Origin: Eledone cirrhosa
Taxonomy: Eukaryota
DNA length: 64,000 bases
Assembly (NCBI GenBank): GCA_964016885.1
Contig: OZ024743.1
Span: 175,274,001-175,338,000, forward strand
Direction: 5' to 3'
Shown here in pieces: positions 1,254 to 45,100 of the stretch (position 1 is the first letter of the stretch; each line of letters begins with the position of its first letter). A program made the position numbers and the translations under genes. Below the pieces are notes generated by a model, which saw only the letters and a list, made by a program, of their open reading frames with translations, made no database searches and was not told the origin of the DNA.

Positions 1254-1404
1254 GTTTAAAATAGAGTGGAAAAGATGGGAAAGACCACTTACCGTACCTT
1301 TCGTAGAGGAAGGTGGTTTTTCCATCCCTTTTCACTTGATCGTCTGTTGAAGGGACCGTTGAATCGTCCCTTCAGCTGGTCGTCGGCTCTTCTATGAGTA
1401 TGTC

Positions 1405-3419
1405 CTAATATACTCTCCGGTTGAGAGTCCCTCCTAGGTCTCTGAAATCACCAACTGCGTTGGGGAATTTCGTTTTAATGTTTGTGTATTGTTTCTGTGC
1501 TATTTTTAGCAGTCTTATGTTAGTTGGCGTTTTGATTGGTGCTGGTATTATGTAGTCGTGCTGTGAAATGTCTGTGTGTACAATTATGTAAGTCATTAGT
1601 TTCTTGTTGTGTGTATTTATTGCCGTGCATTTGTTTTTCTGGGGGTGGGTGTGGTTCTGCTATTTTCTTGTCGTTGTTGCTGGGTGTGTGTGTTTTGTTG
1701 TTGTGTTTGCGATGTTGGTGCTTGTGGTGGTGGAGTTGAAGGTGTTGTTGTTGTTGGCGGTGGGGTTGTCGCCAGTGGTGATGGTGGTGCTAGTGCGGGT
1801 GGTGATGGTGTTGGTGGTGTTGCTGCTGTGAGTCTCTTTGCAGTAGCCTTTACCCTTTTTTCATTTCTTTCCTCCCTTTTCGAAGGCGACGATGCGCTGC
1901 TTCTGCGTTTTGCCTTTTTACGACCTTTTGGAATCCCTCTCCCACCTCACACTCCATGTCTGATTCTGTGAGGTCGGGGAGGGGTACCAGCTCCACTCTT
2001 TCATTTGTTGTTGTTGGTGATGTTTGCACTGGAGTCTATGTTGCAGCTTTGGTATTGCTGTTGTTGTTGTTAATACTTCCACTGCTGCTGCTGTTTTTGA
2101 TTTCCGTGGCGTGGGTATGGGTGCCACGGATCTATCGTTCCTGGTTGCCGCTTGTCCTGTTGCTGGTAGCCGTGGAGCCGGTTTCGGAAGGAGGGTTTTT
2201 TTATCCTTTCTCAGGGTCTTCTCGTTGCAGAAGGCCCTGAGGTGAGTCTTTGATCCACAGCGAAAGCATTTCGGGCGTTTGCCCTCAACACTTATGGGCA
2301 GTTGAGTGCCGTTATTGAAGTCTATCACATCCGGGATAGCTTCGATGCACTCCTGGTTGGTTTGGATTAACATCTCAATAGAGGTGCCGACCCAATCTTC
2401 TCTTACTTTTTTCTGTACTTGCAGTACAGTTGTTTTGTCCTCGGTTCCGACGAGGACAGACACGGCCAGCCAAGAAGGGGACATCCCGGGTGGGACGTGA
2501 GTCAGTATGACCCTCACAATTTTTTGCCCGCAATAAGAGGGCACCAACACCATCTCCTCGCTCCTTAGGGTCACTAAGGATTGAGCCTTTGCCTCCTGGG
2601 GTGTGGCAAAAAGTACGTCTACGGTGGCATATTTCTTGCCTAGGGTGATGTGCGTTTTCCGCTGCCACACAGACCCTAAGGCTTTTTGTATTTCAGCCTC
2701 TGTGGCTCTTTCAACCCTACGGGATTTTGTACTTACTGTACGGTACGTGACCGTACAGTGCTGTTGGGTTTCTAAAAATTTTTCGGCTGCCTTGCAGATT
2801 GCTCGGTGTCTGGTTTTTGTCACCATCTTCTTCGCTTCCTCTAATTCCTCATTTGTTATGAGGATGGTTTCCAGGTTCTTTGCGATACCTGCAAACGAGA
2901 TTGGTTTTTCTTTGCTGCTGTTGTTGTTGTTGTCGTCAGAGCTGCTGTTACTTTTGTTGTTGCTGCAGGTACTACGACTACTGCCGCCGCCGCTGTTGCT
3001 GTGGTTGTTGTTGTTGTTGTTGCTGCTGCTGCTGTTGTTGTTGTTGATGCTAATGCTGTTGTTGTTTATGCTGCTGCTGCTGCTGTTGCGGCTGCTACTG
3101 TTGTTTTCCTTGTCACTGTTGCTGCTGCTGCTGTTATTACGGCTGCTACTGCTATTATTCCTGACGTCAGACGAATGAAATGGGTTTTCGTATTTCCCGC
3201 ACACCTGTTTCGTCGTTGTCGTCGTCGTCGTGGAGAAATCTTGCACGCTTGCACGTGATTTTTCTTTTCTGGCGTCGCTTGCGAAAGAGAAGGGAGGGAG
3301 AGAGACACATTTAAAGAAGGGAGGGAGAGAGACAATCTTCTCTCTGCTGTAGTGAAGATTGAGGAAGAAGAAGACGGAATGAGTGGGAGTGACTTGTGAA
3401 AATTCTTTTTCGTAGCCAT
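1405..3419 (-). pseudogene. Tx1 ORF1 (gag-like RNA-binding protein), frameshifted
   Basis: ATG at 3419 after an A-run; Asn/Ser-rich N-terminus; EGKRPKCFRCGSKTHLRAFC knuckle; coding split across ORFs 3066-3455, 1918-3453 and 1405-1596. Confidence 0.8.
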
Positions 3420-3653
3420 GTTTTTTTTTTTGTTTAAAATAAATATTGGGCACAAAACCCCAATAAGCGGTTATTTAACCCCGAAGGGCTAAATAACGGA
3501 CAGAAAGACCCCCCTCACGAGGAGGAGGGTGTTTTTGTCTACAAGTTGGTTATAGTTTTAAACAATTTACAATTGTTATAGCGGTCAAAATTTACAATAC
3601 CTTACAGAGCCGAACCTCCGGCAACCATAGCATTCAATAATAATAATAATAAT

Positions 3654-6700: not shown

Positions 6701-7594
6701 TGCCGTACTGTCTGCCCCTCTCTATGTACTGGGTGTCTTCTCTGATGCACCTCAGCGCAACTTCGACATCTTCTTGTGGGATTAACGCTGCCCTTTTGGT
6801 TTGTGCTGAGATGCATCTATAATGCACCGTTTTGCGCTCCACTGCCTCAATAGCTTCTACCGGGACAGTTAAGTTGGCCCAAGTTTGCTCTTGCTTGATG
6901 AGCTTCCATGCCTGGGCCAACTTTTCATCTTTGTTTGAGAGGTCCATGTTGAAGCATGGCCTCTTTTTTGCTGCTGCCGCAGCGAAAGTGGTCTTGTTTT
7001 CGTTGGGGGTGTTGTTGACGTTGTTCTTGTTGGTGTTGTTGTTAGCACTGTCGCTGTTATCATTGTTGTCTTTGTTGCCACCGTTGTTCTCGGTGCAGTT
7101 GGTATTGTTGCTGTTGGTGTTGTCGCTATTTGTTTTCATGTTAGTGGTGTTGATATTGTTGTTGTATTTGTTATTTTTTTTTTTTGTTATCTATATTTTC
7201 GTTGTCACTGTTACTGTCATTTTTTTCAAAATTAGAGTTCTTATTGGTATCATTGGTGTCTTTGTTTACATTGTTTGTGGTGGTGCTTGTGTTATCAATG
7301 TGTGTTAATTTCACTGTAGCGCTCTTCTCAACTTCGACGTCGTTGTCGCACGACAGCCGACATATCGCTGGGGGGCGTGGCTCAGTCATGTTTTTTTTTT
7401 TTCGTAAATTTTTTAACATGTAAAAAAAGTTCAAATATTTGGGCCAAAAGGCCCAAATATTATACTTTCCCCTTCACGGGGCAAAGTCTAAGGGCTTATA
7501 TCCCTGACACAACAAGAAATATTTAACAACAAATAATTTAAACAGGCAAATAAAGCGACTTACTGTGAGCGAGCAAAATACGTCCGCTTAGACC
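3749..7594 (-). mobile_element. Tx1-like retrotransposon copy A2, with internal deletion of EN and N-terminal RT
   Basis: ORF1 pieces 7389-5620 (CFVCGEKTHLRAFC) joined at about 5490 directly to CPLSSLLYV...AYADD; C-terminal CPRCAQSDETVLHALVQC; 3' end GCCCTTGTGGCCAATAAATGAAATC then (ATT)n. Confidence 0.9.
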
Positions 7595-7745: not shown

Positions 7746-7922
7746 TGTTTCTACTTTAGGGACAAGGCCAGCAATTACCCAGTGTATTACTGGTACTTTA
7801 TTTTATCGACCCCGTAAGGATGAAAGTTAACCTCGGCGGGATTTGAACTCAGAATGGAAAGGGCTGTAACTCTTTGCGTCAAAGCATGGCGTCCGACCCT
7901 CTACCGATACTGCCAATCCACC
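7746..7922 (-). mobile_element. tRNA-derived SINE, full length
   Basis: box A TGGCAGTATCGG and box B GAGTTCAAATCCC on the minus strand; (ATT)n tail. Confidence 0.92.
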
Positions 7923-7955: not shown

Positions 7956-7957
<2 letters not shown>

Positions 7958-8551
7958 TTTCTTTATTGGCCACAAGGGCTGACATCAAGAAAAACATCAC
8001 AGACGGAACAGGACGGTACGATGTGGGTTTTGTGCGTGTAAATATTTTTATTATTTATATAAGAAAAGAAAAAAAAAGGACATAGAAACATATATATAAA
8101 CAATAAAAATGAAAATTGAAACAATGAAAAATGCCCCAATAGGGGGGAACCTCCGAGGGTTACTCGTGGCGAAAACCACACAAAAGACCACGGCCACCCA
8201 GACCACCAGGGCAAGCGCCCTCTCCCAATTTTTTCATTTCTCAAACTACAGACGTATATTCAGAGTGGTCCCGTTCACTCGGACCATTCTCGCTACATTC
8301 ACCCATCTTTCAACAAACTTGCTAGAAGGCAGCACTTGCCTCTCCACCCTTATTTTCCTCTTCAAGTGAAACTTGAAAAAGTTAATTAGGGATTCGCCGA
8401 AGAGGAAAGTGTCTGACTTTAACCCTGTAACCTTGTCCACCACACAATCTCTTTCGCCATGGCCACCAGGCAGATGAAAACCGCCTGCCCTTCCTCCTCG
8501 AAGGAAGACGGCGAGACCATCTGCACAATGGACTCAGTCGACAACCGAATC
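7956..8551 (-). mobile_element. Tx1-like retrotransposon copy A3, 3' fragment
   Basis: encodes ORF2 C-terminus (FVERWVNVARMVRVNG); 3' end GCCCTTGTGGCCAATAAAGAAATC then (ATT)n. Confidence 0.88.

Positions 8552-26710: not shown

Positions 26711-26791
<81 letters not shown>
26711..26791. repeat. (TATC)n tract immediately 5' of the Tx1 B array
   Basis: direct reading; further TATC tracts at 32388-32450, 37010-37026 and 41947-41962 separate the elements. Confidence 0.97.
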
Positions 26792-26794
<3 letters not shown>

Positions 26795-26797
26795 TAA

Positions 26798-28603
26798 ATG
26801 GCCGAAGCTTCTTCACCAAAATTCGAAGGAGGAAAGAGGAGATGAACTTACAGCTTTCCCCTGCCACTGTCACAGTAGCAGAGGTCAAGAAGAAAGGTCA
26901 GCCAGAGGAAGAATTCTCTCCACCTGCTAACCGACAACTTGACGTTGCCATGGCAACAACCCAAAGAACCAGCAGCAACAGCAACAACAACAACAATGCG
27001 ACGGACGAAAACAACACCGATAACAATAACAATAACAATAACAACAACAACAAGACCAATAACGGTGACAACAACAACAATGATAACAACAACACCACCA
27101 ACGACAACAACAACACAAACAAACAAAATTTCTCCTTCGCCGAGACGACAAGGAAAACCCTCGACTATCTGCCTGTAGATATAACAAAAGCGAAGGAGCT
27201 ACTGGCGGATGCGAAAAAATATATAGTGTACGGAGAAAATGGTTCATTCACAATCCATTCCCCCCCCCCCCCCCCGGAACTAAAAAGCCAGAGACTCCTA
27301 AACACGGTCATGTTTAGGACAATCTCGAACAAAAGTAAAAAACCAGCTCAACCATCACAGAGCGAGATAGAGCTGGTTTTAAAAGACGTCATGAAGGACA
27401 TCACCTTCATTCAGAAGGATAGACTCTACGGGAGTCTATCCATTCTCATGAAGGACAGGGACACAGCAGTGAAACTGTCCATCAAACCAATCACATCGAC
27501 CGCATACACCTTCTACCCTACGTACATGGGTAGAAGAACACAAAAATAAAAATCCACACCATCCTGCCGATTATGGACATATGGTGGGTTTGACAGGTTT
27601 CCTGGACCTGGAGGATGACATGCTGGTGTCCATGGGAAAGGCATCGGGTGACGCGTTCAGTGGAACGAGCCTCGAACTTGTAGTTCAAATGAGGCCCGAA
27701 AGGATCGCCCAGATCCCTGAACGCGTCATACTGGATGATCTAACCTTCATCAACATTACCGTTGAGGGTAGGCGGCCCTCGTGTTACCTCTGCGGAACCA
27801 GAGGTCACCTGAGGGCTGTCTGTCCCCAACTTAATAAGAAAACCCCAATCCTGCCTACACCACCAACAACTGCACAACCAACACAATCACCACAACTACC
27901 ACTACAAAAACAACCACCACAGCTCAAACCAAAACAAAACAATGTCCAACCCATCCCCTCCACTCAAAAAACAAAAACAATTTCCAAAACACCCGTACCG
28001 CAAACACAACCCGAAAATATACCCCTCCCCTCCAACGCGGAAGATGACCCTAGTTCGTCGTCAGACGAGGAGGAGCACTTCCACACAATCAAAAGAAAAA
28101 AAAGAAAACACACCTCAGACACACAAATGAAAAAAAACCCTCCCCAAAACATAACACTGACACCAACACAAAAGAGCTCACAACAACAGCAAACAAAAGA
28201 CACCACACAAAAACAAAAACATGCATACACATACATAAACACAAGAAACAAAAAACTGTTAAACATTGTGTACAACAACAATCTAATAAAAACACAAGGG
28301 CCTAACTTCACCCAGGCAGGGGATTTCCCCCACCTCAAAATGATTAAGGCCCCACAGGACACCTATAAAACTTTAAAAAACAATTTTAAAGAGGACGTGG
28401 GTCTCCCCTGCGTCGGGCCCATTAACCGCGTCCTCCTAAAAAACTATCCCACCCCCTCCCCAAACACCCACACAACTCCAAGCTCCCCAACCACACAACA
28501 CACTGATGCCCCCACACTTCCACAAACCACCACCCCACCCAACAACCCATCCCCCACCCTAATGGAAATTGTGCAGCCCGATACCCGGGACGCAGAGAGG
28601 TAA
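26798..28603 (+). pseudogene. Tx1 ORF1, frameshifted near 26840 and 27545
   Basis: Asn-rich N-terminus; EGRRPSCYLCGTRGHLRAVC knuckle; Pro/Thr/Lys-rich tail. Confidence 0.85.
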
Positions 28604-28627
28604 GTGCCTTTTCTCTTCACCACCAAC

Positions 28628-31600
28628 ATGGCTATGCTAAGAGTAGGCTGTTTAAATGCGCGTGGCCTGGGCTCAACTTGGAAGCAAGCAATGCTTCTAA
28701 ATGACCTCAGGTCACAACGTATAGATGTGATGGTTATTTGCGAGGCCCCCCGGATCAGCAACGTGCGACAGCTGGCCCCCACCTTTGATGACTTTGAGAT
28801 GCACGCATCTCTCTGTCAGCCCGGAGGTGGGGGTGGAGTTGTCGTTCTGCTGCAAAAACATCTGGGTCTCGCAACACAGATGGTACATTTGGACCCGGAG
28901 GGTCGACTAGTGGTTCTGGACCTTGGCAGTGGTAAAGGCGGAGCGTTTAGGTTGGTAGCCGCCTACGGCCCTTTCGGGTCAATGCGGCCGGACTATTTCC
29001 ATCGTCTGGAGACTTTTCTAGGGACGCCCCGCTCCTGGCTATTAGTGGGGGACTGGAATGGTATCCTAGATGCACGCTGGGACTACGTAGGGGCCTGCCC
29101 CGATAGAGAGGGGTGTAATAGCCTCAAAGGGTTAATCGGTCGATTTGACCTGGCCGATAGATATCGACTAGATTTTCCGACTGCGCCAACCTGGACTTGG
29201 GCAAATCGTAGCGGATCATCTAGGTCGTACCTAGATAGGTTCTTAGTTAGAATTAAGGATAAGGACTTTTTAAGTTGTCCAAAAATGCGCATGGTTGGCT
29301 ATTCAGACCACAAATTAGTGACCTGCATGGTCAACCTTGACAGAACTCATAGACAGGGCCCCGGTTACTGGAAGCTCAACTTGTCCTTGCCGGCAAGTAG
29401 AGCCTACAGGAATCGGATTAGTACGTTAGTTAAGGAACGGTTGACTGGAGCGATCGTCAACAGCAGGTGGTGGGTATCTCTAAAGAGAGAGATTAGAGTA
29501 GTCTCGATAGAATTTAGTAAGGTTCTAGCTGCGGATAGGAATAGGAAGGAAAGGGAGCTAATAGATAGAGTAGAAGAGGCAATTAGAAGCGGCGACGTGG
29601 CCAGAGTGCTAGCGTCGAGAACGGCTTTGAGCCAGTTTTTCGACGCGAAGCACGAAGGCTGCGTTGTCCGAAGTAAAATACGTGCTCTAGGGAACGAGGG
29701 GACCAAAGCTGTTAGCTGGGCCCGCGTGACAGAGGCCAACAGTGGAACTAAATCCACCATCCGGTCTTTGCGAGACCTGGATGGACGGGCGATTCTTGAG
29801 CCTAAGCAGATGTGTGAGGCCTTTCAAAGGCACTTTGCCCGACTGTTCGGGAGGGGCGGGAGGCCGGTTGGGAACGTGGACTTCGGTCCATACCTCGCCG
29901 GCCTGCCGCGCCTCTCGGACAGGGAGGCGAAGTCCTGCGAGGAGCCGATTTCGGCCGCTGAGATAGAGGACGTGCTGAGCCAATGCGGCAAACGCAAATC
30001 CCCGGGTCTCGATGGTCTTCCTTACGAATTATATCTAGCTATGCCGGACTTGTTCCCCGATCTCCTCGAGGCGGTCTACTGCAACTGGCAACAGAACGGG
30101 AGAATTCCCTGTACTGTGACCAAGGGCGTAGTCACGCTAGTGAGGAAGGACGAGAACAAGGGGGACGAAATAAGTAACTTCAGGCCCATAACTCTGCTAA
30201 ATACAGAGTTACAGATTTTGGCCAAGGTGTTAGCAAAGAGGTTGGCGCTTGTCGTGGGCAACCTGGTGGGAGATGCGCAGACATGCGCTATCCCGTCCAG
30301 GTCCATCCATGACAACCTCCACCTCATGCGATACATCATAGAGAGGGTTGGGAACGAACCCGGCTTTGGTGGGGCTCTGATCAACTTGGATCAATCTAAG
30401 GCGATCGATAGGGTCGACCATGGTTACCTGGATGCGGTGCTAGCGGCGGCAGGCTTCGGACCCGTTTTCAGGGGCTGGATCACTGCGATGCACAGCAGCC
30501 GCATCTGCTCTAGGGTCAAGGTGAACGGCTACCTCTCGGAGCCGTTCAAAATCGCGCGGTCCATCCGACAAGGGTGCCCTCTCTCCTCCCTTCTGTATGT
30601 GTTGACTCTCGAGCCACTACTGCGGAAGTTGGAGTTGTTGCAGGGCATCCCTTTGGAACCGGGATTGCGGAAAGCGGTGTCGGCCTACGCCGATGACGTG
30701 ACAGTAATGGTGTCGACGGCCTCCGAAATCGAGGCGGTCGGCACCTTACTGGAGGAGTACGAAAAGTTCACAGGGGCTAAGCTGAACCGGGACAAGTCGA
30801 TCGGTTTGCAACTCGGCACGTGGAGGGGCAGACCGATGCCCTCCGATGGCGTCGTCGGACGGTGGACGGAGGGCCCGGTGAAGTTGCTCAGGGTCTGGTT
30901 CGGACCGGACCTCCAGGTGGAGAAAAACTGGGCGGAGGTTACGAACAGGGTGTTTGCACTGACCCAGAAGTGGGCCAATTGCAAACTATCCCTGAAAGGT
31001 CGGGCGGAGGTGGCGAACACCTACATAGCGTCCGTCATCTACTACCGCCTGACCGTAGTGCCCTGCCCAAGGGAAACGCTCACCAAGATGGAGCGCGCGC
31101 TCTTCCAATTCCTTTGGAAGAGGCGGGCTCCTATGGTGAGGAGATCCATCTGCTGTCAACACCCTTCGAAAGGAGGGCTGGGGATGCCGTGGCTAATGAT
31201 GCGTAAACACGCATTAAGGCTACGGCACCTCTACGTATTCCTCACCGGACAACCGGTGTGGGCCTCGTTTGTGAGACGAACCTTTCCCAGACTCGTCTCA
31301 CTCACCGAGCTGCAATCCTGGGTCAAGCAAAGACCGAGAAAACTGGGCGCCTGGCACACTGAGTGTGCCCAGGCGCTCACCGCCCTCTGGCAGGCGGATC
31401 CGGTTATCAGTGGAGACTCCACCGCAACATTCTATAGAGGGCTGGTACGCAGCAGGTGCGACGACGCCCTCGGAGAAGCCCTAGACATGGAGGAGGACGA
31501 ACTGGCCAGCCTGTTCGGTAGGACATTCAGCCCGGGACCTATGGACAACTTCCAGAAGTCCCTGGCCTGGCAGTGCTACCGAGGAGCTTTACCCGTTCGA

Positions 31601-32068
31601 GAAAGGCTCTACAGACACGGGCGCCCGGGTAGGGACCCCGCCAAAAAGATCTGTCCCAGATGCGTGTGCGACGAGGAAACCGTTGCACACGCATTGGTAC
31701 ACTGCTCGGGCGTAGCCGATCTGTGGGGCTATGTCGAACAACTGCTGTCAAGGGTGGGACCGATCCGGTTGACCACCGAGTCTATTGTAATGATCAAGCC
31801 GCCTCCCCCCTTCAAAGATGAAGCAGAGGCGGTGTTTCTGTGCGTAATAGCCATGGCGAAAGAGGTTGTATGGTCGACGCGTCTGAAAGGACTGAGGTCA
31901 GGCACCTTTCTCTCTGGCCAACAACTGGTCCGTTTCTTCCGATATCATTTCGGAAGAAGGATCAGGATGGAGAGAGAGGTGCTGCACCCCAGTCGTTTTT
32001 ATGAAAGGTGGGTGAAAGTGGCGAGAATGGCCCGTGTGAATGGGCCTTCTCTTTACATGAGCCTGTAG
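28628..32068 (+). CDS. Tx1 ORF2: APE endonuclease, reverse transcriptase, CCHC finger (1146 aa, open)
   Basis: LNARGL, GDWN, SYLDRF, SDHK (APE); PGLDG, NFRPITLLN, LDQSKAID, RQGCPLS, AYADD (RT); CPRCVCDEETVAHALVHC. Confidence 0.95.
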   Translation: MAMLRVGCLNARGLGSTWKQAMLLNDLRSQRIDVMVICEAPRISNVRQLAPTFDDFEMHASLCQPGGGGGVVVLLQKHLGLATQMVHLDPEGRLVVLDLGSGKGGAFRLVAAYGPFGSMRPDYFHRLETFLGTPRSWLLVGDWNGILDARWDYVGACPDREGCNSLKGLIGRFDLADRYRLDFPTAPTWTWANRSGSSRSYLDRFLVRIKDKDFLSCPKMRMVGYSDHKLVTCMVNLDRTHRQGPGYWKLNLSLPASRAYRNRISTLVKERLTGAIVNSRWWVSLKREIRVVSIEFSKVLAADRNRKERELIDRVEEAIRSGDVARVLASRTALSQFFDAKHEGCVVRSKIRALGNEGTKAVSWARVTEANSGTKSTIRSLRDLDGRAILEPKQMCEAFQRHFARLFGRGGRPVGNVDFGPYLAGLPRLSDREAKSCEEPISAAEIEDVLSQCGKRKSPGLDGLPYELYLAMPDLFPDLLEAVYCNWQQNGRIPCTVTKGVVTLVRKDENKGDEISNFRPITLLNTELQILAKVLAKRLALVVGNLVGDAQTCAIPSRSIHDNLHLMRYIIERVGNEPGFGGALINLDQSKAIDRVDHGYLDAVLAAAGFGPVFRGWITAMHSSRICSRVKVNGYLSEPFKIARSIRQGCPLSSLLYVLTLEPLLRKLELLQGIPLEPGLRKAVSAYADDVTVMVSTASEIEAVGTLLEEYEKFTGAKLNRDKSIGLQLGTWRGRPMPSDGVVGRWTEGPVKLLRVWFGPDLQVEKNWAEVTNRVFALTQKWANCKLSLKGRAEVANTYIASVIYYRLTVVPCPRETLTKMERALFQFLWKRRAPMVRRSICCQHPSKGGLGMPWLMMRKHALRLRHLYVFLTGQPVWASFVRRTFPRLVSLTELQSWVKQRPRKLGAWHTECAQALTALWQADPVISGDSTATFYRGLVRSRCDDALGEALDMEEDELASLFGRTFSPGPMDNFQKSLAWQCYRGALPVRERLYRHGRPGRDPAKKICPRCVCDEETVAHALVHCSGVADLWGYVEQLLSRVGPIRLTTESIVMIKPPPPFKDEAEAVFLCVIAMAKEVVWSTRLKGLRSGTFLSGQQLVRFFRYHFGRRIRMEREVLHPSRFYERWVKVARMARVNGPSLYMSL

Positions 32069-32388
32069 GTGGAAAAGAGGAAGGAACGAGGGAGCACCCC
32101 CTCTCTGGGCTCCTGAGGAAAAGGGTTGCACACTTTTTTCGGGGGTGTGTGCGACCCCCCCAAGGCGCCTCCTCTCTATTGAGGATTTTGTTATAAATTT
32201 TATTTTTTGTTATATTTTATAACAAAATCCTCTATTGAGGATTTTGTTATAATTCTATTTTTTGTTATATTTTATTTTATTTTTATATATTGTTATTGCC
32301 TCCTCCCTATTGAGGACGCATTGTTTTGTAAACTCCCCCCTTTGTATTTGTCCCCTTCTTTTGTGCCCCTGTGGCTAATAAAGAAATA

Positions 32389-32448
<60 letters not shown>

Positions 32449-32451
<3 letters not shown>

Positions 32452-35400
32452 TACCGTTGAGGGTAGACGGCCCTCGTGTTACCTCTGCGGAACCAGAGGT
32501 CACCTGAGGGCTGTCTGTCCCCAACTTAATAAGAAAACCCCAATCCTGCCTACACCACCAACAACTGCACAACCACCACAACTACCACTACAAAAACAAC
32601 CACCACAGCTCAAACCAAAACAAAACAATGTCCAACCCATCCCCTCCACTCAAAAAACAAAAACAATTTCCAAAACACCCGTACCGCAAACACAACCCGA
32701 AAATATACCCCTCCCCTCCAACGCGGAAGATGACCCTAGTTCGTCGTCAGACGAGGAGGAGCACTTCCACACAATCAAAAGAAAAAAAAGAAAACACACC
32801 TCAGACACACAAATGAAAAAAACCCCTCCCCAAAACATAACACTGACACCAACACAAAAGAGCTCACAACAGCAAACAAAAAACACCACACAAAAACAAA
32901 AACATGCATACACATACATAAATACAAGAAACAAAAAACTGTTAAACATTGTGTACAACAACAATCTAATAAAAACACAAGGGCCTAACTTCACCCAGGC
33001 AGGGGATTTCCCCCACCTCAAAATGATTAAGGCCCCACAGGACACCTATAAAACTTTAAAAAACAATTTTAAAGAGGACGTGGGTCTCCCCTGCGTCGGG
33101 CCCATTAACCGCGTCCTCCTAAAAAACTATCCCACCCCCTCCCCAAACACCCTCACAACTCCAAGCTCCCCAACCACACAACACACTGATGCCCCCACAC
33201 TTCCACAAACCACCACCCCACCCAACAACCCATCCCCCACCCTAATGGAAATTGTGCAGCCCGATACCCGGGACGCAGAGAGGTAAGTGCCTTTTCTCTT
33301 CACCACCAACATGGCTATGCTAAGAGTAGGCTGTTTAAATGCGCGTGGCCTGGGCTCAACTTGGAAGCAAGCAATGCTTCTAAATGACCTCAGGTCACAA
33401 CGTATAGATGTGATGGTTATTTGCGAGGCCCGGATCAGCAACGTGCGACAGCTGGCCCCCACCTTTGATGACTTTGAGATGCACGCATCTCTCTGTCAAC
33501 CCGGAGGTGGGGGTGGAGTTGTCGTTCTGCTGCAAAAACATCTGGGTCTCGCAACACAGATGGTACATTTGGACCCGAAGGGTCGACTAGTGGTTCTGGA
33601 CCTTGGCAGCGGTAAAGGCGGAGCGTTTAGGTTGGTAGCCGCCTACGGCCCTTTCGGGTCAATGCGGCCGGACTTCTTCCATCGTCTGGAGACTTTTCTA
33701 GGGACGTCCCGCTCCTTGCTATTAGTGGGGGACTGGAATGGTATCCTAGATGCACGCTGGGACTACGTAGGGGCCTGCCCCGATAGAGAGGGGTGTAATA
33801 GCCTCAAAGGGATAATCGGTCGATTTGACCTGGCCGATAGATATCGACTAGATTTTCCGACTGCGCCAACCTGGACTTGGGCAAATCGTAGCGGATCATC
33901 TAGGTCGTACCTAGATAGGTTCTTAGTTAGAATTAAGGATAAGGACTTTTTAAGTTGTCCAAAAATGCGCATTGTTGGCTATTCAGACCACAAATTAGTG
34001 ACCTGCATGGTCAACCTTGACAGAACTCATAGACAGGGCCCCGGTTACTGGAAGCTCAACTTGTCCTTGCCGGCAAGTAGAGCCTACAGGAATCGGATTA
34101 GTACGTTAGTTAAGGAACGGTTGACTGGAGCGATCGTCAACAGCAGGTGGTGGGTATCTCTAAAGAGAGAGATTAGAGTAGTCTCGATAGAATTTAGTAA
34201 GGTTCTAGCTGCGGATAGGAATAGGAAGGAAAGGGAGCTAATAGATAGAGTAGAAGAGGCAATTAGAAGCGGCGACGTGGCCAGAGTGCTAGCGTCGAGA
34301 ACGGCTTTGAGCCAGTTTTTCGACGCGAAGCACGAAGGCTGCGTTGTCCGAAGTAAAATACGTGCTCTAGGGAACGAGGGGACCAAAGCTGTTAGCTGGG
34401 CCCGCGTGACAGAGGCCAACAGTGGAACTAAATCCACCATCCGGTCTTTGCGAGACCTGGATGGACGGGCGATTCTTGAGCCTAAGCAGATGTGTGAGGC
34501 CTTTCAAAGGCACTTTGCCCGACTGTTCGGGAGGGGCGGTGAGCCGGTTGGGAACGTGGACTTCGGTCCATACCTCGACGGCCTGCCGCGCCTCTCGGAC
34601 AGGGAGGCGAAGTCCTGCGAGGAGCCGATTTCGGCCGCTGAGATAGAGGACGTGCTGAGCCAATGCGGCAAACGCAAATCCCCGGGTCTCGATGGTCTTC
34701 CTTACGAATTATATCTAGCTATGCCGGACTTGTTCCCCGATCTCCTCGAGGCGGTCTACTGCAACTGGCAACAGAACGGGAGAATTCCCTGTACTGTGAC
34801 CAAGGGCGTAGTCACGCTAGTGAGGAAGGACGAGAACAAGGGGGACGAAATAAGTAACTTCAGGCCCATAACACTGCTAAATACAGAGTTACAGATTTTG
34901 GCCAAGGTGCTAGCAAAGAGGTTGGCGCTTGTCGTGGGCAACCTGGTGGGAGATGCGCAGACATGCGCTATCCCGTCCAGGTCCATCCATGACAACCTCC
35001 ACCTCATGCGATACATCATAGAGAGGGTTGGGAACGAACCCGGCTTTGGTGGGGCTCTGATCAACTTGGATCAATCTAAGGCGTTCGATAGGGTCGACCA
35101 TGGTTACCTGGATGCGGTGCTAGTGGCGGCAGGCTTCGGACCCGTTTTCAGGGGCTGGATCACTGCGATGCACAGCAGCCGCATCTGCTCTAGGGTCAAG
35201 GTGAACGGCTACCTCTCGGAGCCGTTCAAAATCGCGCGGTCCATCCGACAAGGGTGCCCTCTCTCCTCCCTTCTGTATGTGTTGACTCTCGAGCCACTAC
35301 TGCGGAAGTTGGAGTTGTTGCAGGGCATCCCTTTGGAACCGGGATTGCGGAAAGCGGTGCGGCCTACGCCGATGACGTGACAGTAATGGTGTCGACGGCC

Positions 35401-37010
35401 TCCGAAATCGAGGCGGTCGGCACCTTACTGGAGGAGTACGAAAAGTTCACAGGGGCTAAGCTGAACCGGGACAAGTCGATCGGTTTGCAACTCGGCACGT
35501 GGAGGGGCAGACCGATGCCCTCCGATGGCGTCGTCGGACGCTGGACGGAGGGCCCGGTGAAGTTGCTCGGGGTCTGGTTCGGACCGGACCTCCAGGTGGA
35601 GAAAAACTGGGCGGAGGTTACGAACAGGGTGTTTGCACTGACCCAGAAGTGGGTCAGTTGCAAACTATCCCTGAAAGGTCGGGTGGAGGTGGCGAACACC
35701 TACATAGCGTCCGTCATCTACTACCGCCTGACCGTAGTGCCCTGCCCAAGGGAAACGCTCACCAAGATGGAGCGCGCGCTCTTCCAATTCCTTTGGAAGA
35801 GGCGGGCTCCTATGGTGAGGAGATCCATCTGCTGTCAACACCCTTCGAAAGGAGGGCTGGGGATGCCGTGGCTAATGATGCGTAAACACGCATTAAGGCT
35901 ACGGCACCTCTACGTATTCCTCACCGGACAACCGGTGTGGGCCTCGTTTGTGAGACGAACCTTTCCCAGACTCGTCTCACTCACCGAGCTGCAATCCTGG
36001 GTCAAGCAAAGACCGAGAAAACTGGGCGCCTGGCACACTGAGTGTGCCCAGGCGCTCACCGCCCTCTGGCAGGCGGATCCGGTTATCAGTGGAGACTCCA
36101 CCGCAACATTCTATAGAGGGCTGGTACGCAGCAGGTGCGACGACGCCCTCGGAGAAGCCCTAGACATGGAGGAGGACGAACTGGCCAGCCTGTTCGGTAG
36201 GACATTCAGCCCGGGACCTATGGACAACTTCCAGAAGTCCCTGGCCTGGCAGTGCTACCGAGGGGCTTTACCCGTTCGAGAAAGGCTCTACAGACACGGG
36301 CGCCCGGGTAGGGACCCCGCCAAAAAGATCTGTCCCAGATGCGTGTGCGACGAGGAAACCGTTGCACACGCATTAGTACACTGCTCGGGCGTAGCCGATC
36401 TGTGGGGCTATGTCGATCAACTGCTGTCAAGGGTGGGACCGATCCGGTTGACCACCGAGTCTATTGTAATGATCAAGCCGCCTGCCCCCTTCAAAGATGA
36501 AGCAGAGGCGGTGTTTCTGTGCGTAATAGCCATGGCGAAAGAGGTTGTATGGTGGACGCGTCTGAAAGGACTGAGGTCGGGCACCTTTCTCTCTGGCCAA
36601 CAACTGGTCCGTTTCTTCCGATATCATTTCGGAAGAAGGATCAGGATGGAGAGAGAGGTGCTGCACCCCAGCCGTTTCTATGAAAGATGGGTGAAAGTGG
36701 CGAGAATGGCCCGTGTGAATGGGCCTTCACTCTACATCAGACTATAGGTGAGGAAGATGAAAGACCAAGGGAGCACCCCTTCTCTGTGCTCCTGAGGAGA
36801 AGGGTTGCACACCTTTTTCGGGGGTGTGTGCGACCCCCCAAGGCGCCTCCTCTCTATTGAGGATTTTGTTAAAAATTTATTTTTTGTTATATCTTATTTT
36901 ATTTTTATATTTTGTTATTGCCTCCTCCTTATTGAGGACGCCTTTTTGTGTAAACTCCCCCCTTTGTACTTGTCCCACTTTTGATGCCCTAGTGGCAAAT
37001 AAAAGAAATA
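32449..37010 (+). mobile_element. Tx1-like retrotransposon copy B2, 5'-truncated in ORF1; ORF2 (33311-36747) with a 1-nt frameshift at about 35359
   Basis: near-identical to B1; starts at ITVEGRRPSC directly after (TATC)n; ends GTGGCAAATAAAAGAAATA then (TATC)n. Confidence 0.95.
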
Positions 37011-37029
37011 TATCTATCTATCTATCTCT

Positions 37030-40000
37030 CATCTCGATAGACATGGCCAGTTCGCTGGTAAGTTTTTGTTGATTTTCTAAGTAAGAAACCAAAAATTTAT
37101 TGTTAAATTTTATACTATGTTATAGCTTGACCCCACGACTGGACATTCAGACGGTGGGTCAAGTAATTTTCACCCCTCCCTGGGGTGAAATTTTCGTTTG
37201 AAAAATTTTTTTCGGTGAAAAAAAATTGTAAACAAATGTTGCATTCAGTCATAGACGACGCGTCCAGTACTAGAAGTGGTGGAGAGGCGGTAAGAGTGTT
37301 AAGCTCGCAGTCATTTCCTCTCACTACCTCATTGAAAGACGTCGAAAATGTCGTCAGTTTTGAAAACACGATGTCGAACGCTGATTGTAACACCAACACC
37401 AACACCAATAACATGAAAAATGTAAACAAAATCAACTAGAACAACAACAACAGCAACAACAACAACAATGACAACAAGAACAACAACAACAACAGCAATA
37501 ACATGAACAATGTAAACAAAACCAACTAGAACAATCACAAAAACAACAACAACAATGACAACAAAAACAACAACAACACAGCAACAATGATAACAACAAC
37601 AACAGCAACACGAACAACTCCACAAACAAGGAAAAGATTTCCTTCGCACAAACCGTCCAAAAGACGAAACTGTTTACATACCTTGACATTTCCAATGCTA
37701 GGGAAATGTGAAGTGATGCAAAGCAGTATGTAACTTTTTGGTGAGAGTGGTGCTTTCAGCATCACTTCTCCTTAAGAAGTTACGTAGAGAAACTATCCTA
37801 AAAACAATAATATTTAGGACAGTTTCAAATGTGTCTAAAAAACCAGTCTAATTATCTCAAAACGAAATTGAACTGGTTCTGAAAAATTCAATGAAGGATA
37901 TTGCCTTCATCCAAAAAGTTAAACTTTTTGGAAGCATTTCGGTGCTAATGAAAGACCAATTGACGGCACAGAAATATTCTGTGTCGCCAATTGTGTCCCC
38001 CCTCTACACCTTTTTCCCCACATATATGGGAAAAAGGACACAAAAAAAATAAGAGTAACAAATATCACACCAAATGTAAACAGCTGGTAGATATAAATAT
38101 CACACCAAACGTAAACATCTGGTAGATATTAGCTGGTTTCATCAATTTTGATGAAGATGCAGTAATTTCGGTAGGAAAGTCCTCCAGGGGCATATTTAAC
38201 GGTACAAGCTTAGAAGTTCTGGTCCAAATGAGACCAGAACGGATAGCTAGAATACCACAAAGTGTGCCTCTGGATGGTCCCCGGGAGACGAAGAGGTGAG
38301 TGATTTCTTTTCCTCTTCTTTTAACTTTTCAGCACCAACATGGCCAATATAAGAGTTGGATGTGTGAATGTACGCGGCTTGGAGATGCCCTGGAAACAGG
38401 GCAAACTTTTAAACGACCTCAGGTCGCACAGTATGGATGTAGTAGCCATTTGCGAGTCCAGGATCCACAGCGAGCGACAGCTGACCCCCATCTTCGACGA
38501 CTTTGAGATCTACGCATCTCTCTGTCAGCCGGGAGGTGGGGGCAGGGTTGCCGTTTTGCTGCGGAAACATCTGGACCTCGTAACACAGACGATAGATCTG
38601 GACCCGGAGGGTCGACTGGTGGTCCTAGACGTTGACGGTAGTGAAGGTGGAGCCTTCAGGCTGGTGGCCGCATATGCCCCATCCGGACACCGCGGCCAGA
38701 CTTCTTCAAACGTCTAGAGACTTTTCTGGGAACGTCCCGCTCCTTGCTTTTAGTGGGGGACTGGAATGGAATCCTAGATGCACGTTGGGACTATGTGGGA
38801 GCATGTCTCGATAAAGGGGTGTAACAGCCTCAAACAGTTAATTGGCTGATTTGACCTGGCCGATAGATATCGACTAGATTTTCCGACTGTGCCACTGTGG
38901 ACGTGGACTAATCGTAGCGGAACATCTAGATCGTACCTAGATAGGGTTCTAGTTAGAAATAAAGATAGGGACATGTTAAGCTGTCCACAAATATTCATGT
39001 TGCCTATTCAGATCACAAACTAGTGACCTGCATGGTCAACCTTGATAGAGCCCATAGACAAGGACCCGGCTACTGGAAGCTGAACTTGTCGTTACCGACA
39101 TGCAAAGCCTACAATAGACGGATTAGAACTTTAGTTAAACAACACTTGACAGGGGCCATTGTCAACAACAGATGGTGGTACTCTCTCAAGAGGGCAGTTA
39201 GATTAGACTCGTTAGTTTTTAGTAAAGAATTAGCGTTAAATAGAAATAGGATCGAGAAGGAACTGATAGATAAAGAAGAAGAGGCAATTAGAAGTGGCAA
39301 CGTAGCCAGCGTGCTAGCAACGAGAACGGCCTTGTACCAGTTCTTCGACGCAAAGCACGAGGGCTGCGTTGTCAGAAGAAAAATACGTGCTCTGGGTAAC
39401 GTGGGAGCCAAAGCTGTTAGCTGGGCCCGAGTGACGGAGGCAAAAAATGGCAACAAGTCCACGATTCAGTCTCTGAAGGACTCTCGTGATACGTGAGCCG
39501 AAGCAGATGTGCGCGGCCTTTCAGCGGCACTTTGCTCAGCTGTTCGGGCAGGGCAGCGCGCCGGGAGGGGCTATGGATTTCGCTCCATACTTCGACGACC
39601 TACCGCGACTCTCGGACAGCGAGGCGAAGTTCTGCGAAAAGCCGATTTCAGCCGCTGAGATAGGGGACGCGATGAGCCAATGCGGCAAACGCAAATCTCC
39701 AGGTCTTGACGGTCTACGCTACGAATTTTACGTAGCAATGCCGGACTTATTCTCCGGTCTCCTGGAAGCGGTCTACTGCAACTGGCAGCATAACGGGAGA
39801 ATTCCCAGTTCTGTGACCAGTGGCGTAGTCACACTAGTCAGGAAGGACGAGAATAAGGGGGATAACATGGCAACTTCCGGCACATAACTCTGCTAAACAC
39901 AGAGTTACAGATTTTGGCCAAGGTGTTGGAAAAGAGGCTGGCGCTTGTCGAAAACCTGGTGGGAGAAGCGCAGACATGCGCAATCCCGACCAGGTCCATA

Positions 40001-41947
40001 CACGACAAACTCCACCTCATGCGATACATCATAGAGAGGGTAGGGTGTAAACCCGGCTTCGGTGGGGCCCTGATCAACTTGGATTAGTCTAAGGCTTTCG
40101 ATAGGGTTGACCATCGTTACCTGGATGCCGTGCTTGAGGCGGCAGGATTCGGACCCGTGTTCAGGGACTGGATTGCTGCAATGCACAACAGCAACATCTG
40201 CTCAAGGGTCAAGGTGAACGGCTAGCTCTCAGAGCCGTTCCATATTACGCGATCCATTCGACAGGGATGCCCTCTCTCCTCCCTTCTGTACGTACTGACT
40301 CTTGAGCCTCTACTGCGGAAGTTGGAGCTATTGCAGGGCATCCCTCTGGAACCGGGACTGCGGAAAGCGGCGTCGGCCTACGCCGACGACGTGACAGTAA
40401 TGGCGTCGAGCACCTCGCAAATTGAGGAAGTCGGCACCTTACTGAAGGAATACGAAAGCTTCACAGGAGCGAAGCTGAACCGGGACAAGTCCATCGGTTT
40501 GCAACTCGGATCGGGGAGAGGCAAACTGATGCGTTCCGATGGCTTCGTCCGACGCTGGATGGAAGGACCGGTAAAGCTGTTCGGGGTCTCGTTTGGTCCA
40601 GACCTCCAGGTGGAGAAAAACTGGAACGAGGTGACGGCCAAGGTGTTTGCACTCACCCAGAAGAGGGCCGAGTGCAAACTATCCTTGAAAGGTCGAGCGG
40701 AGTTGGCGAACACTTTTCTAGCGTCCGTCATCTACTACCGCTTGACCGTCGTGCCTTGTCCAGCAAAACCGCTCATCAAAATGGAGCGCGCGCTCTTCCA
40801 ATTCCTTTGGAAGAAGCGGGCTCCTTTGGTGAGAAGATCCATCTGCTGCCAACATCCTTCCAACGGAGGGCTGGAGATGCCGTGCACAAACACGCGCTCA
40901 GGCTGCGGCATCTCTACGTATTCCTCACCGACTCGTCTCGCTGACCGAGCTGCAGTCCTGGGTCAAGCAAAGACCGAGGAAAATGGGCGACTGGCACATC
41001 GAATGTGCTCAGGGGCTCACAGCCCTCTGGCAGGCGGACCTGGCGATCAGTGGAGACTCCACTTCGTCATTCTATAGAGGGTTGATCCGCAGCCTGTGCG
41101 ACGACGCGCTCGGAGAAACTCTAGGCGTAGAGGAAGACGCGACTGGCCAATCTGTTCGGTAGGACCTTCCGCCCGGGACCGATGGACAACTTCCAAAAGT
41201 CCCTGGCCTGGCAGTGCTACCGAGGAGCTCTACCAGTTCGAGACAAGCTCTACAGACATGGGCACCCGGGCAGCGACCCTTCGAAAAAGATCTGTCCGAT
41301 ATGCGTGCGAGACGAGGAAACCGTCGCGTACGCATTCATACATTGTCCGGGCGTTACCGACCTGTGGGGCTATATAGAACGACTATTGTCGCGGGTGGGA
41401 CCAATCCGGTTGACCACCGAGTTCATTGTCATAATCAAACCGCCACCCTCCTTCAAAAACGAAGGAGAGGCGGTTTTCCTTTGTGTGATATCTATGGCGA
41501 AAGAGGTTGTATGGTGGATGAGGTTAAAAGGGCTGAGGTCAGACACTTTTCTCTCCGGCCAACAACTGATTCTTTTTTTCAAATACCACTTTGGAAGAAG
41601 AATCAGGATAGAGAGGGGGGTGCTGTACCCCAGCAAGTTTTATGAAAGGTGGGTGAAAATGGCGAGAATGGCCCGAGCGGTTGGGCCTTCTCTCTATATC
41701 AGCCTGTAGGTTGAGGAAAAAGAGGAAGAGAGGAAAGGGGTACAAACTCTTCGTACTCCCGGAGATGATGGTTGCACATTTTTTCGGGGGTATGTGTTAC
41801 CAATATGAAATGTCTCCCCCTATTGGGGAAAATCGATTAATTTTTAAATTGCATTTGTGATAGTATTTTACACGTTTATGTTGTATGTAAACTTCCTCCT
41901 TTGTATTTGTTCCCTTCCTTTGTGTCCCTGTGGCTAATAAAGAAACA
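37030..41947 (+). mobile_element. Tx1-like retrotransposon copy B3, diverged subfamily with 5' UTR, ORF1 deletion and a decayed ORF2 (38340-41709)
   Basis: MANIRVGCVNVRGL, AYADD, CPICVRDEETVAYAFIHC; many stops; ends CCCTGTGGCTAATAAAGAAACA then (TATC)n. Confidence 0.92.
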
Positions 41948-42111
41948 TATCTATCTATCTATGTATCAATCCTCCTCTATCTACCTACCTACCTACCTAC
42001 CTACCTACCTACCTACCTACCTACCTACCTACCTACCTACCTACCTACCTACTTACCTACCTACCTACCTACCTACCTACCTATCTACTTACCTACCTAC
42101 CTATATATCTA

Positions 42112-45100
42112 TCACGTGTACCATCCGAGTCTACCTCGATTGTTGTGGAAAATACTATCGATAATGATAATCAAAAGTATAAACAATTGAAAATTTCCCT
42201 CAATGAAATCTTCCAGAGAGAAATTAACTCATGTGTAAATATCTCTCTTGCTGAACATGTTAAAACGACAATGTTGAATAAAAAACTAAATAATGAAATA
42301 TTACGTGTTATTGACGAAATAGGGAATGAATATTTACGACGGATAAAAACCCCAACATTTTGGCAAATCAACGCCTGTTTATATGCCTTAGCAATGACAG
42401 TGAAGCATTATCTTGGTGATAGCAGAGATATTAACAAGAACAAAACACCACCAAAAATACCATCATATATAACTAAAATAGAAAAAAAGATTGCTGACCT
42501 ACGAAAAAACATAGGATATGTGACAATCCTCCTTATATGCAAACAAACACAAAAAAACCTCACTCCTCACCAACAAAGAGTGAACAATAAAATAGAGACG
42601 ATGTTTGGTAACAGTAGAACCAGAACTCTCCAATATAAGCTGATCACCCTCAAACAAGAATTGAGAGCTGTTAGCGAAAAACGCCGATACCTGAAGAGTA
42701 TAGATGAGAGAAAAGTGCTTAATAAAAGATTCAGACGAAACCAAACATCAGTCTATAGAGATATGAAGGGCAAAATAATAAGTTTCACTGAGGCCCCATC
42801 CCAGAAAGACATAGATTCCTTTTGGAGAAAAATATGGGGTGAAAAGAAGAATTTCAACCAAGATGCAGTGTGGCTAAGAGAAATCCGAAAGAACTATTGC
42901 TCCTACACTACAACAAAAACATACAAAATAAGTGAGGTTAGGGTACCCTTGAGACTGTGATAGGAAAACTCCAATCTAAGAAAACACCAGGAAGAGACAT
43001 GATTGTCGGCTACTTGTACAAAAAACTGATATTCTATCGGAGGTATCTTACTGACCTCTGCCAACAAGTTCGTAAGGGAGATACACTTATACCAGAATGG
43101 TTGACATTAGCACAAACATTACTGGTCCCCAAGAACAAAGACACCCACTTGGCAAAAACTACCGACCCATTGCATGCCAGAACCTGATGTATAAGATGTA
43201 TACAGCCTGCCTGAACCTATTCCTCCAAGATCACTGTGAAAATAATAACATCATCACAGATGAACAAGCAGCTGGAAAGAAATGAATTTGGGGATGTGCT
43301 GATGAACAACTCCTAATCAACAAAACTGCGATGTCGGAGGTGCGACAACTTAGGAGGAGTATGACTACAGTCTGACTGGACTACAGGAAAGCTTTTGATT
43401 CTGTTCCCCACTCTTGGATGATAAAGGCCCTCCAACTTGCTAAAGTCACAGACATTATTGTCAGAGCCATAGAGAGGCTGTCTTCTTCTTGGGCTACTAT
43501 CCTAAGGTTAAAGACAGAGAGGGAGGACTCTATTTTCACTGATAAAATAAAATATTGCAGGGGTATATTTCAGGGGGACAGTCTCTCTGTGATATTGTTC
43601 ATCTTGTCATTAAACCCCTTGTCCTTTCTGCTCAAGAAATGTGAGGGATACATCATTGGCTCACAGGAGGACAGAAATACGAACCTAACCCATAACTTCT
43701 TTGTGGACGATCTGAAACTCTATGCCAAGAAGATGGATGGGATGAAGAAAAATATTGACCTGGTTACAACGTTCTCAAAGGATATAGGAATGGGGTTTGG
43801 CCAAGATAAATGCTCATACATGACTGTAAAGCGGGGAAAAACAACAACCCAATCTAGCAACATTGTCATCAATGGCCTAACTGTTTCACCGATATCTGAT
43901 GAGGACTGCTACAGATACCTGGGGATAGATGAGAACATAACCTATAATGGTATCTGTAATAAAGAACGCGTAACCAGGGAATACTACACCCGATTAAGAA
44001 AGATCTGGTCATCGGAACTCTCTGCGCAAAACAAAACAGTGGCTCACAATGTGTTTGCTGTGCCTGTCCTAACACCAACGTTTGGAATACTCAATTGGAC
44101 GATAGACGGAATCCGAGCAGTTCATGTTGGAACTCGAAAAATACTGAACAACACCGGAAACTTCCGTATCAACAGTGACATAGACCGCCTTTACTTGAAA
44201 CGTAAACAGGGAGGCAGAGGCCTAACATCAGTCCAGACAACATTTGAATGTCGCATCATATCTCTCCGACAACATCTACGAACCTCGAAGCGTAGGAGCC
44301 CGCTTCTCGAGCAAGTCTATCTGCATTAAACAGATAAGATCATGAGAGTTGGGAAGGAACTCCTTGAGAGATATTCCCTGTGTGATAATCAAAAACTCAC
44401 ACCCAGGGATGTCGCTCAGCAGTATCGCAGTGAATCCATGGATGAAAAACTGCATGCCTATCAGCAAAAAATCATGGATAGATATGTTGCCAGGAAGCTC
44501 CAGAGTGAGAGTAATATAGATAAGGAACGTAGTCTATCTTGGACCAACAACCGCTATATTGGCTCCCACTTTGAAGGATACGCTTTTGAAATCCAGGAAC
44601 AGGAGATTAGCACGAAATACCTGATACACAAAAGTGATAGGGATGCGGGCAAAACACCTAGATGTGATAACAAGTGCAGACTCTGCAGAACTAACATCGA
44701 GGATATCACCCATGTCATCAGCAGCTGCCCAAAGATGTCATCGCGGTACTATCTACCTATGAGGCATGATGTAGTGGCCAAAACACTGTACAATGCAGTT
44801 CGTAAAAAAGATAGCCCCGATAACAAACACATTAAAAGCTCCAGCAATGTGGAAGACATCCATGTACATAATATGAAAGAGTACTGGTGGAATGTTCCAG
44901 TAAAGACCCCAATAAAATGCAGGCATAACAGACCAGATATTATGATATGGGACAGGGAAAAGAAAGCATGCACAGTAGTGGAAATTAGCTGCCCAGCAGA
45001 TGCCAATATAATATCAAAGATTAGCAAAAAGGAGAATATTTATGCAGAATTGATGAGAAATCTGCAGATACTCCACCACGATTACACCTTCAGATTTATG

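Follow-up and report, generated by a model that had tools for sequence, protein, structure and literature searches.

The microsatellite-specific long interspersed nuclear elements (LINEs) Kibi and Koshi were reportedly first described by Kojima and Fujiwara in 2004. Kibi occupies (TC)n and Koshi (TTC)n, and elements of the same habit include Waldo at (ACAY)n, Mino at (AC)n and Dong at (TAA)n; how such elements find their repeat is not well understood (PMC3812793). Togen, at (TG)n, and some HERO families are also microsatellite-specific, and target-specific elements with an APE endonuclease fall in the Tx1 and R1 clades (PMC4640811). Crocodilian Tx1 families sit in (TTCC)n or (TTTC)n, a preference being recognized where it holds for more than 20% of flanks (PMC4494074). 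The available part of a report on Octopus vulgaris describes 13 recently active L1-Tx1 families and mentions no target preference (PMC13282606). Here we describe three lineages of LINEs, which we call A, B and C, and a small partner, all present in a 64,000-nucleotide stretch of the Eledone cirrhosa genome (contig OZ024743.1, positions 175,274,001 to 175,338,000 of the forward strand; hereafter the window). They are target-specific L1-group LINEs of the known microsatellite-specific sort. The target unit of B, TATC, is new to the literature searched: we found no TATC- or GATA-specific LINE in work on non-long-terminal-repeat or Tx1 elements and microsatellites, with Repbase Reports and subscription journals outside the scope of that search.

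We propose that B inserts in one direction where it meets a TATC motif, with the result that copies accumulate in (TATC)n arrays, and that its sister group, made up of A and C, does likewise at ATTATT motifs and (ATT)n together with the small partner. We put the probability of this reading at about 80%; the mechanism in it is one that we infer. The reading rests on repeat at both sides of the copies, fixed orientation, the lack of cross-occupancy, target-site duplications that start with the unit, head-to-tail arrays, and the division of the lineages into sister clades. B, A and C thereby resemble Kibi and Koshi, Tx1-clade elements of teleost fish that are of the APE type, have the same microsatellite on both sides and differ in unit between related lineages (PMC3812793, PMC4494074). 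By contrast, the Kibi and Koshi targets are pyrimidine tracts, whereas the units here are TATC and ATT and the host is not a vertebrate.

Window features were mapped with Tandem Repeats Finder (TRF) and self-BLAST. Positions 26793-41947 of the forward strand are taken up by copies of lineage B, which encodes APE endonuclease and reverse transcriptase (RT) domains. The copies, their open reading frames (ORFs) and their flanks are the following (UTR, untranslated region; nt, nucleotides).

26711..26792, forward strand: (CTAT)20 microsatellite that flanks B1 on the 5' side and is preceded by DNA other than a LINE 3' end
26793..32388, forward strand: B1, a young B copy, with ~210 bp of its 5' UTR gone
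26798-28603, forward strand: ORF1 of B1, frameshifted
28604-32068, forward strand: ORF2 of B1, open, 1154 amino acids, with APE, RT and a weak zf-RVT match
32355..32388, forward strand: conserved 3' box of B1, consisting of GCC-CCTGT-GGC (possible 3-bp hairpin), AATAAA, GAAA and 2 nt
32389..32451, forward strand: (TATC)15 spacer between B1 and B2
32452..37010, forward strand: B2, 5'-truncated, with ORF2 split over two frames
37011..37032, forward strand: spacer between B2 and B3, TATCTATCTATCTATCTCTCAT, which is (TATC)4 followed by CTCTCAT
37033..41947, forward strand: B3, of an older subfamily, with a full 5' UTR of its own and with several frameshifts
41948..42113, forward strand: 3' flank of B3, made up of (TATC)3, a degenerate stretch and (TACC)31

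The three copies differ in where they begin: B1 starts at about position 210, B2 at about position 1260, and B3 is full length. B1 is itself 5'-truncated, as 29 other copies in the genome reach ~210 bp farther 5', to ...CTGGGATGGACACACGCG. Over 4467 bp, B2 shows 98.4% identity to B1, the B2 start corresponding to B1 position ~1045, whereas B3 shares only 82% of its nucleotides with B1 and, across ORF2, 80-87% with B. Because 5' ends, subfamilies (98% versus 82%) and spacer lengths all differ, the sequences argue for three separate insertions. A sequence-only reading of the window had already described B1, B2 and B3 as lying head to tail over 15 kb, joined only by TATC spacers, with B3 as a diverged subfamily and with separate insertion, rather than tandem duplication, as their origin, and each of these points stands. 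None of the three is intact (0/3); an intact B copy, L153, with an ORF1 of 597 and an ORF2 of 1153 amino acids, lies elsewhere in the genome.

We searched for further copies in the 3.0-Gb genome from which the window comes and cite the loci by L numbers. Junctions were read for perfect repeat units within ~34 nt, usually at least three; random 34-nt segments from unrelated loci reach three units in 0.04-0.08% of cases each for TATC or GATA and in 0.07-0.17% for ATT or AAT. Of 29 young full-length B copies (L002-L030, fetched with the B1 5' end), 25 have at least three perfect TATC units at the 5' junction and 26 have at least two. Beyond this tract lies unrelated DNA in 15 copies (including the duplicates L022/L023) and another LINE 3' end in 11, the other three having no tract. 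A second sample of 29 loci was taken at B 3' ends (L032-L060). Here the 3' flank holds at least three TATC units in 19/29, and 18 of the copies are truncated within 1.5 kb; at the truncated 5' junction of 13 of these 18, at least three TATC units are again present, which excludes a repeat carried in the 5' UTR. The two copies with unique 5' flanks, L057 and L058, have no TATC array at their 3' ends either. B3-type 5' ends behave similarly, with at least three TATC units within 70 nt in 17/26 (three more loci have no central match). Thus, since 5' flanks including those of truncated copies are repeat with unrelated DNA beyond, the repeat is the insertion target of B and more than a tail. The pattern of a merely synthesized tail, with repeat only on the 3' side and unrelated 5' flanks, is not what the copies show.

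A and C occur in the first 8.6 kb of the window, on the reverse strand, interspersed with an element that resembles a short interspersed nuclear element (SINE).

1..3635, reverse strand: lineage C copy that runs past the window start; its 5' end, GAATGCTATGG, adjoins (ATT)6
3654-3714, reverse strand: 5'-truncated copy of the SINE-like element
3749..7594, reverse strand: A copy with a ~2 kb internal deletion near 5500; identity to genomic copy L154, 96%
7625-7727, reverse strand: 5'-truncated copy of the SINE-like element
7746..7922, reverse strand: SINE-like element, full length (177 bp), between (ATT)11 and (ATT)6
7956..8550, reverse strand: A 3' fragment (ORF2 amino acids 1054-1154 and 3' UTR), followed by (ATT)11

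The A copy at 3749-7594 adjoins (ATT)10 with its 5' end, GGTCTAAGCGG, and (ATT)n with its 3' end, ...AATAAATGAAATC, and the fragment at 7956-8550 has a 5' flank other than (ATT)n. The sequence-only reading had seen here three head-to-tail copies of one family in (ATT)n and SINEs. The (ATT)n tails and SINE-like pieces are there as described; the single family is not, the three being an A copy with a deletion, an A 3' fragment and a copy of lineage C, whose nucleotide identity is 71% to A and 68% to B. Genome-wide, at least three ATT units are found in 28/29 of the 5' flanks and 25/29 of the 3' flanks of A, and at least five in all 30 of the 5' flanks of C, none of which has TATC. B junctions with GATA or ATT at three or more units are absent (0/84), as are A junctions with TATC (0/58) or with ATT in the AAT orientation (0/58). 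It follows that insertion is specific to one strand and that the groups keep apart. Taken together, the repeat is present in 52-100% of flanks, far more than the 20% used as the criterion for crocodilian families. The idea of target-specific insertion with two specificities, which the sequence-only reading had put forward, is thus borne out by 5' flanks that are repeat even in truncated copies and have unrelated DNA beyond. It had named mostly non-repeat 5' flanks, or equal use of both repeats by A and B, as signs to the contrary; neither is seen.

Dong offers a likeness in target that does not extend to the enzyme. In its clade, R4, the RT is followed by a restriction-like endonuclease and an APE domain is absent, whereas in A and C an APE domain stands at the N terminus. 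Since the endonuclease types differ, the likeness is one of convergence, not kinship. It lies in the repeat itself, (TAA)n being the (ATT)n of A and C on the other strand and in another phase (PMC3812793).

All five 3' ends in the window share one arrangement, GCC-CNNGT-GGC-N-AATAAA(N)GAAA-NN, and run at once into the repeat, which is TATC... after B1, B2 and B3 and ATTATT... after the A ends at 3749 and 7956. Our reading of the junctions here agrees with what had been noted from the sequence before. In this box AATAAA lies 6-8 nt before the element end, and the flanking GCC and GGC could form a hairpin with a small loop: the stem appears in most minimum-energy folds of seven 3' ends, and the only covarying pairs are ACC/GGT, in lineage C, and GGC/GCC, in the SINE-like element, which has a variant of the LINE box. 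The box also gave us a less biased sample of copies. The sequence TGTGGCNAATAAAGAAA has 19,383 exact genomic occurrences, as against 3 for the reversed control, and we read the first 30 places on contig 1 among these matches. Tails are ATT where N = C (at least three units in 3/5, TATC in none) and TATC where N = T or A (at least three units in 13/25, ATT at three or more in none). Among truncated copies in this sample that could be mapped, 6/10 have at least three TATC units at the 5' junction.

Target-site duplications fix the point of entry more closely. Outside arrays, B duplications begin with TATC or TATA: L159 has a 7-bp duplication, TATCTGT, and L176 one of 19 bp, TATATTTATCAATAATTCT, with ...CTATC just before it in the target. 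For the SINE-like element, we examined copies in loci that had not been selected for A, and found duplications of at least 8 bp in 12/27, with lengths of 9-20 bp. Every one of the 12 starts with ATTAT(T), with 6 of them running on into unique sequence, e.g. ATTATTACAGACAAG. Since duplications begin with the unit, the site before insertion must already have begun with it, which would place the first nick on the opposite strand, immediately 5' of the unit. At unique sites, copies (L057, L159, L176) have only about one unit after GAAA-NN, and long tails are therefore not made de novo. In the fetched loci we counted 27 + 27 copies of the SINE-like element with (ATT)n tails; a search for a tRNA origin by ARAGORN in 3500-8100 returned no tRNA.

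By its best solved relative, B is an APE-type non-long-terminal-repeat retrotransposon of the L1 group. B1 ORF2 matches the Pfam families Exo_endo_phos (9.5e-8) and RVT_1 (2.8e-23), and zf-RVT at 24.7 bits, under the Pfam cut-off of 27.5. In the PDB its best match is human L1 ORF2p (8sxt, 8uw3, 9k6g; E 5e-45, residues 15-866); the APE domain alone has no PDB match at E <=0.001. In the alignment, the catalytic positions of the L1 endonuclease, which in what we take to be their standard numbering are N14, E43, Y115, D145, N147, D205, D229 and H230, are identical in B. ORF1 has no Pfam family match, including none to Transposase_22 (597 amino acids in L153); one CX2CX4HX4C motif, a single CCHC knuckle, is readable in its translation. 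ORF1 variants with RRM and CCHC motifs in non-mammalian animals fit the Tx1 group (PMC5203782). The nearest named protein to B is a hypothetical protein of the limpet Patella caerulea, at 30% identity. Protein database and cluster searches returned no informative family names (15 homologous proteins without a useful name, 150 unnamed representative proteins, 'exonuclease III' and bare domain names were among the matches) and could not separate Tx1 from L1, and a scan of metagenome contigs found no relative of the element. B does show a preference for particular target sequences, a trait frequent among Tx1 elements, though it does not define the clade. Many different 5' truncation points, counted at the 3'-end loci L032-L060, and target-site duplications are further LINE hallmarks. 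Waldo and Mino share with B the combination of an APE-type enzyme and a microsatellite target, (ACAY)n and (AC)n respectively (PMC3812793). They differ in belonging to the R1 clade, whereas the best solved relative of B is L1 ORF2p and not of the R1 type.

How the lineages are related bears on how often the target changed. ORF2 identities are 75% between B and B3, 67% between B and A, 68% between B and C and 70% between A and C. A maximum-likelihood ORF2 tree (1066 columns, LG+G4, 1000 ultrafast bootstraps, with unnamed database proteins at 30-44% identity as outgroups and broken copies placed on B coordinates from tblastn segments) gave (B,B3), with 100% support, as the sister of (A,(C,P0001)), also with 100%; the branch of B3 is inflated by frameshifts. 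The sister lineages that the sequence-only reading had supposed, each with its own target, are thus recovered. Because each habit spans diverged lineages and the sister clades split by target, this suggests a single switch of target, in either direction.

ORF2 residues 1-240 of A and C align with the APE domain of B. One fixed change between the TATC and the ATT groups, S versus I, falls in the stretch aligned with the hairpin loop of the L1 endonuclease, where a comparison of A with B had been recommended; we treat it as a lead only. The low protein identity of the B3 APE domain to that of B1 (58% by tblastn) raised the thought of a natural 'domain swap', which we rejected: nucleotide identity of B3 to B in that region is uniformly 76-87%, and the low protein value is due to frameshifts.

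The insertion cycle that we envisage starts with an endonuclease that would itself be sequence-selective and would nick the bottom strand just 5' of the motif, at GATA^ for B or at AATAAT^ for A and C. Because AATAAA lies so close to the element end, transcripts would finish in the downstream repeat, and the RNA would carry a few target units, (UAUC)n or (AUU)n, at its 3' end. The freed ...GATA-3' or ...AATAAT-3' end could then pair with this RNA end and prime reverse transcription. The GCC-loop-GGC box may serve as the recognition site of the RT, which would also allow mobilization of the SINE-like element. In human L1, the nick at TTTT/A pairs with poly(A). The likeness to L1 lies in the conserved catalytic residues and in a nick that in principle leaves a 3' end able to pair with the RNA tail; the differences are a tetra- or trinucleotide repeat in place of poly(A) and an ORF1 with a single CCHC knuckle. 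For the small partner, the precedent is that of stringent LINE/SINE pairs with a common 3' sequence, reportedly described by Kajikawa and Okada in 2002 (cited in PMC4494074). As in such pairs, the 177-bp element has the 3' box and tail of the LINE; the difference is that the shared tail here is also the insertion target. Crocodilian Tx1 families are comparable in that their microsatellite preference is likewise judged from flanks and that SINEs share it, but their units are others and their SINEs have poly(A) tails, whereas here the tail is the target unit (PMC4494074).

Several observations weigh against this reading. Specificity is incomplete: DNA rich in (TA)n, with only 1-2 TATC-like units, surrounds 3/29 full-length B copies (L003, L018, L025) and about 7/29 B 3' ends, and the remaining full-length copy with fewer than three units, L009, lies in an imperfect TATC/TACC tract. 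Five of the 18 truncated copies fall short, two of them, duplicates of each other, in (TA)n with 2 units and three without repeat at the 5' junction. Only about half of the B tails in the box sample retain at least three units. This weaker association, in mostly older copies, fits repeat decay together with some insertions at short motif sites. The copy samples consist of best-scoring or first-listed matches and include the duplicates L022/L023, L036/L037 and L055/L056. The folding energy of five of the seven 3' ends is no better than that of shuffled sequences (Z-scores about 0), as against -2.1 for B1 and -1.8 for B2. Between the APE domains of the TATC and ATT groups we saw no local excess of fixed differences, so that the hairpin-loop comparison yielded its one substitution and no concentration of changes. 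Finally, a LINE 3' end precedes 16 of the 30 (TATC)n arrays sampled, so that arrays may partly descend from tails rather than having existed before insertion.

Some of these points would be accommodated by a different account, in which the endonuclease is unselective and the target is set by pairing of the RNA's repeat tail, copied by read-through from the flank downstream of the source copy, with any nicked DNA end that matches it, a heritable 'tail memory' rather than a property of the protein. The insertion address would then lie in the RNA: a transcript ends in the flanking repeat, its tail guides the next insertion, and the element is a naturally RNA-guided LINE that a few tail bases can retarget. 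If so, the TATC/ATT split would record one retargeting event. It would be natural on such terms that target and tail always have the same unit, in each of three lineages as well as in the SINE-like element, that cleavage after an AATAAA 6-8 nt before the element end would fall in the flank, and that the groups show few fixed APE differences. Yet each target has been stable across lineages 19-30% apart in nucleotide sequence, where a memory held in the tail only should drift more easily. Nor do B copies sited in (TA)n form a cluster, as their mean distance is 0.0114 versus 0.0060 for the others, and 1963/2000 random groups were as tight, in what is a small test (6 versus 15 copies, 440 nt). Duplications at unique sites, moreover, begin exactly at the motif, which requires that the nick be placed there. 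We therefore consider an unselective endonuclease unlikely, and are equally doubtful of an address written in the RNA.

The remaining explanations do without a chosen target, or with a single insertion. Every 3' end runs into repeat and more than half of the sampled arrays (16/30) follow a LINE 3' end, as would be so if the repeat were only a tail made by the RT at random sites; against this, the repeat is found at the 5' junctions (B, 25/29 full-length and 13/18 truncated; A, 28/29; C, 30/30) with unrelated DNA beyond, and the copies at unique sites (L057, L159, L176) end in about one unit. A repeat that is only a tail is scarcely credible on these counts, and much the same holds for random insertion followed by loss of copies everywhere except in DNA rich in repeats and poor in genes, the model put forward for Waldo near CA repeats in Drosophila. 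Simple repeats do abound in the window, with 118 TRF rows over its 64 kb, but passive accumulation does not predict repeats that abut the element to the base at both ends, a single orientation (0/84 in the GATA orientation), A/C and B never sharing a repeat type, or duplications that begin with the unit. Head-to-tail order could in principle also arise from one insertion that was then multiplied by tandem or segmental duplication or by unequal crossing-over, and processes of this kind do appear to be at work in regular arrays elsewhere, with a 1443-bp period on C2 and spacings of ~6.06 or 12.1 kb on C4. The window copies, however, differ in 5' end, subfamily and spacer length, and unrelated DNA lies upstream of the repeat in 15/29 full-length B copies, making duplication a very improbable source of the order seen here.

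Target-specific insertion by B, A and C, the reading that we prefer, makes these lineages useful for asking what supplies the address. Sister clades with TATC versus ATT targets, young (97-99% alike) and abundant, form a clean natural comparison, and an intact B copy, a co-targeted non-autonomous partner and insertions outside arrays that pin the nick to the base are further assets. Whether the endonuclease or the RNA tail holds the address is directly testable by swaps between these clades.

The repeats themselves bear the mark of the elements. Perfect TATC runs of at least six units have 12,640 starts in the genome (the reversed control is the same repeat and thus uninformative). We sampled 30 of them, 28 independent: besides the 16 that follow a LINE 3' end, 6 are bordered by a LINE on the downstream side only (a 5' end or a truncated element), and the remaining 6 touch none. 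The family occupies most of its target class, with about 22 of the 28 independent (TATC)n arrays touching one of these LINEs, and because of this the repeat class and the family appear to build each other. The family is probably a source of new arrays as well, through later expansion of the short tails that it leaves off target.

Two regular arrays show that tandem amplification also occurs after insertion. At G000:C2:372390728-372400894 (L035-L038), a truncated B copy with (TATC)n recurs with a period of 1443 bp, which looks like satellite-like amplification of an insertion unit. At G000:C4:350725486-350774154 (L216-L221), at least 6 full-length C copies lie head to tail, spaced ~6.06 or 12.1 kb; upstream of each lie (ATT)n and the 3' end of its predecessor.

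(TATC)n arrays also lead straight into several other types of 5' end, e.g. GATAGAGTAAGACACGCTTCGC..., AGACGTGTGTAACTTCGCGGAG... and GAGTGAACGCGTGTCAGATCG... (L037, L178, L194, L202 and L204; L209, L213 and L214; L171, L192 and L212). TATC-targeting subfamilies beyond B and B3 therefore exist.

Other parts of the window hold additional elements. An RT fragment of a further LINE at 8941-10488 (forward strand; RVT_1, 1.4e-09), with ~30% identity to B ORF2 over amino acids 476-676, adjoins the A 3' fragment at 8550-7956. Directly after the (TACC)31 that ends the 3' flank of B3 stands an RT-bearing element at 42114-45300 (forward strand; RVT_1, 2.3e-15, in ORF 43376-44329), with no detectable kinship to B at E 1e-5; it is followed by (ACAT)27 at 45500-45607. 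A perfect 385-bp inverted repeat (100%; 50041-50425 and 55224-55608, arms ~4.8 kb apart) encloses ORFs 50406-51739, which have no Pfam match, and may represent the ends of a DNA transposon. At 20141-20803 lies an 18-bp tandem repeat (CACATACATATACACCAC) of 36.8 copies with a 93% match.

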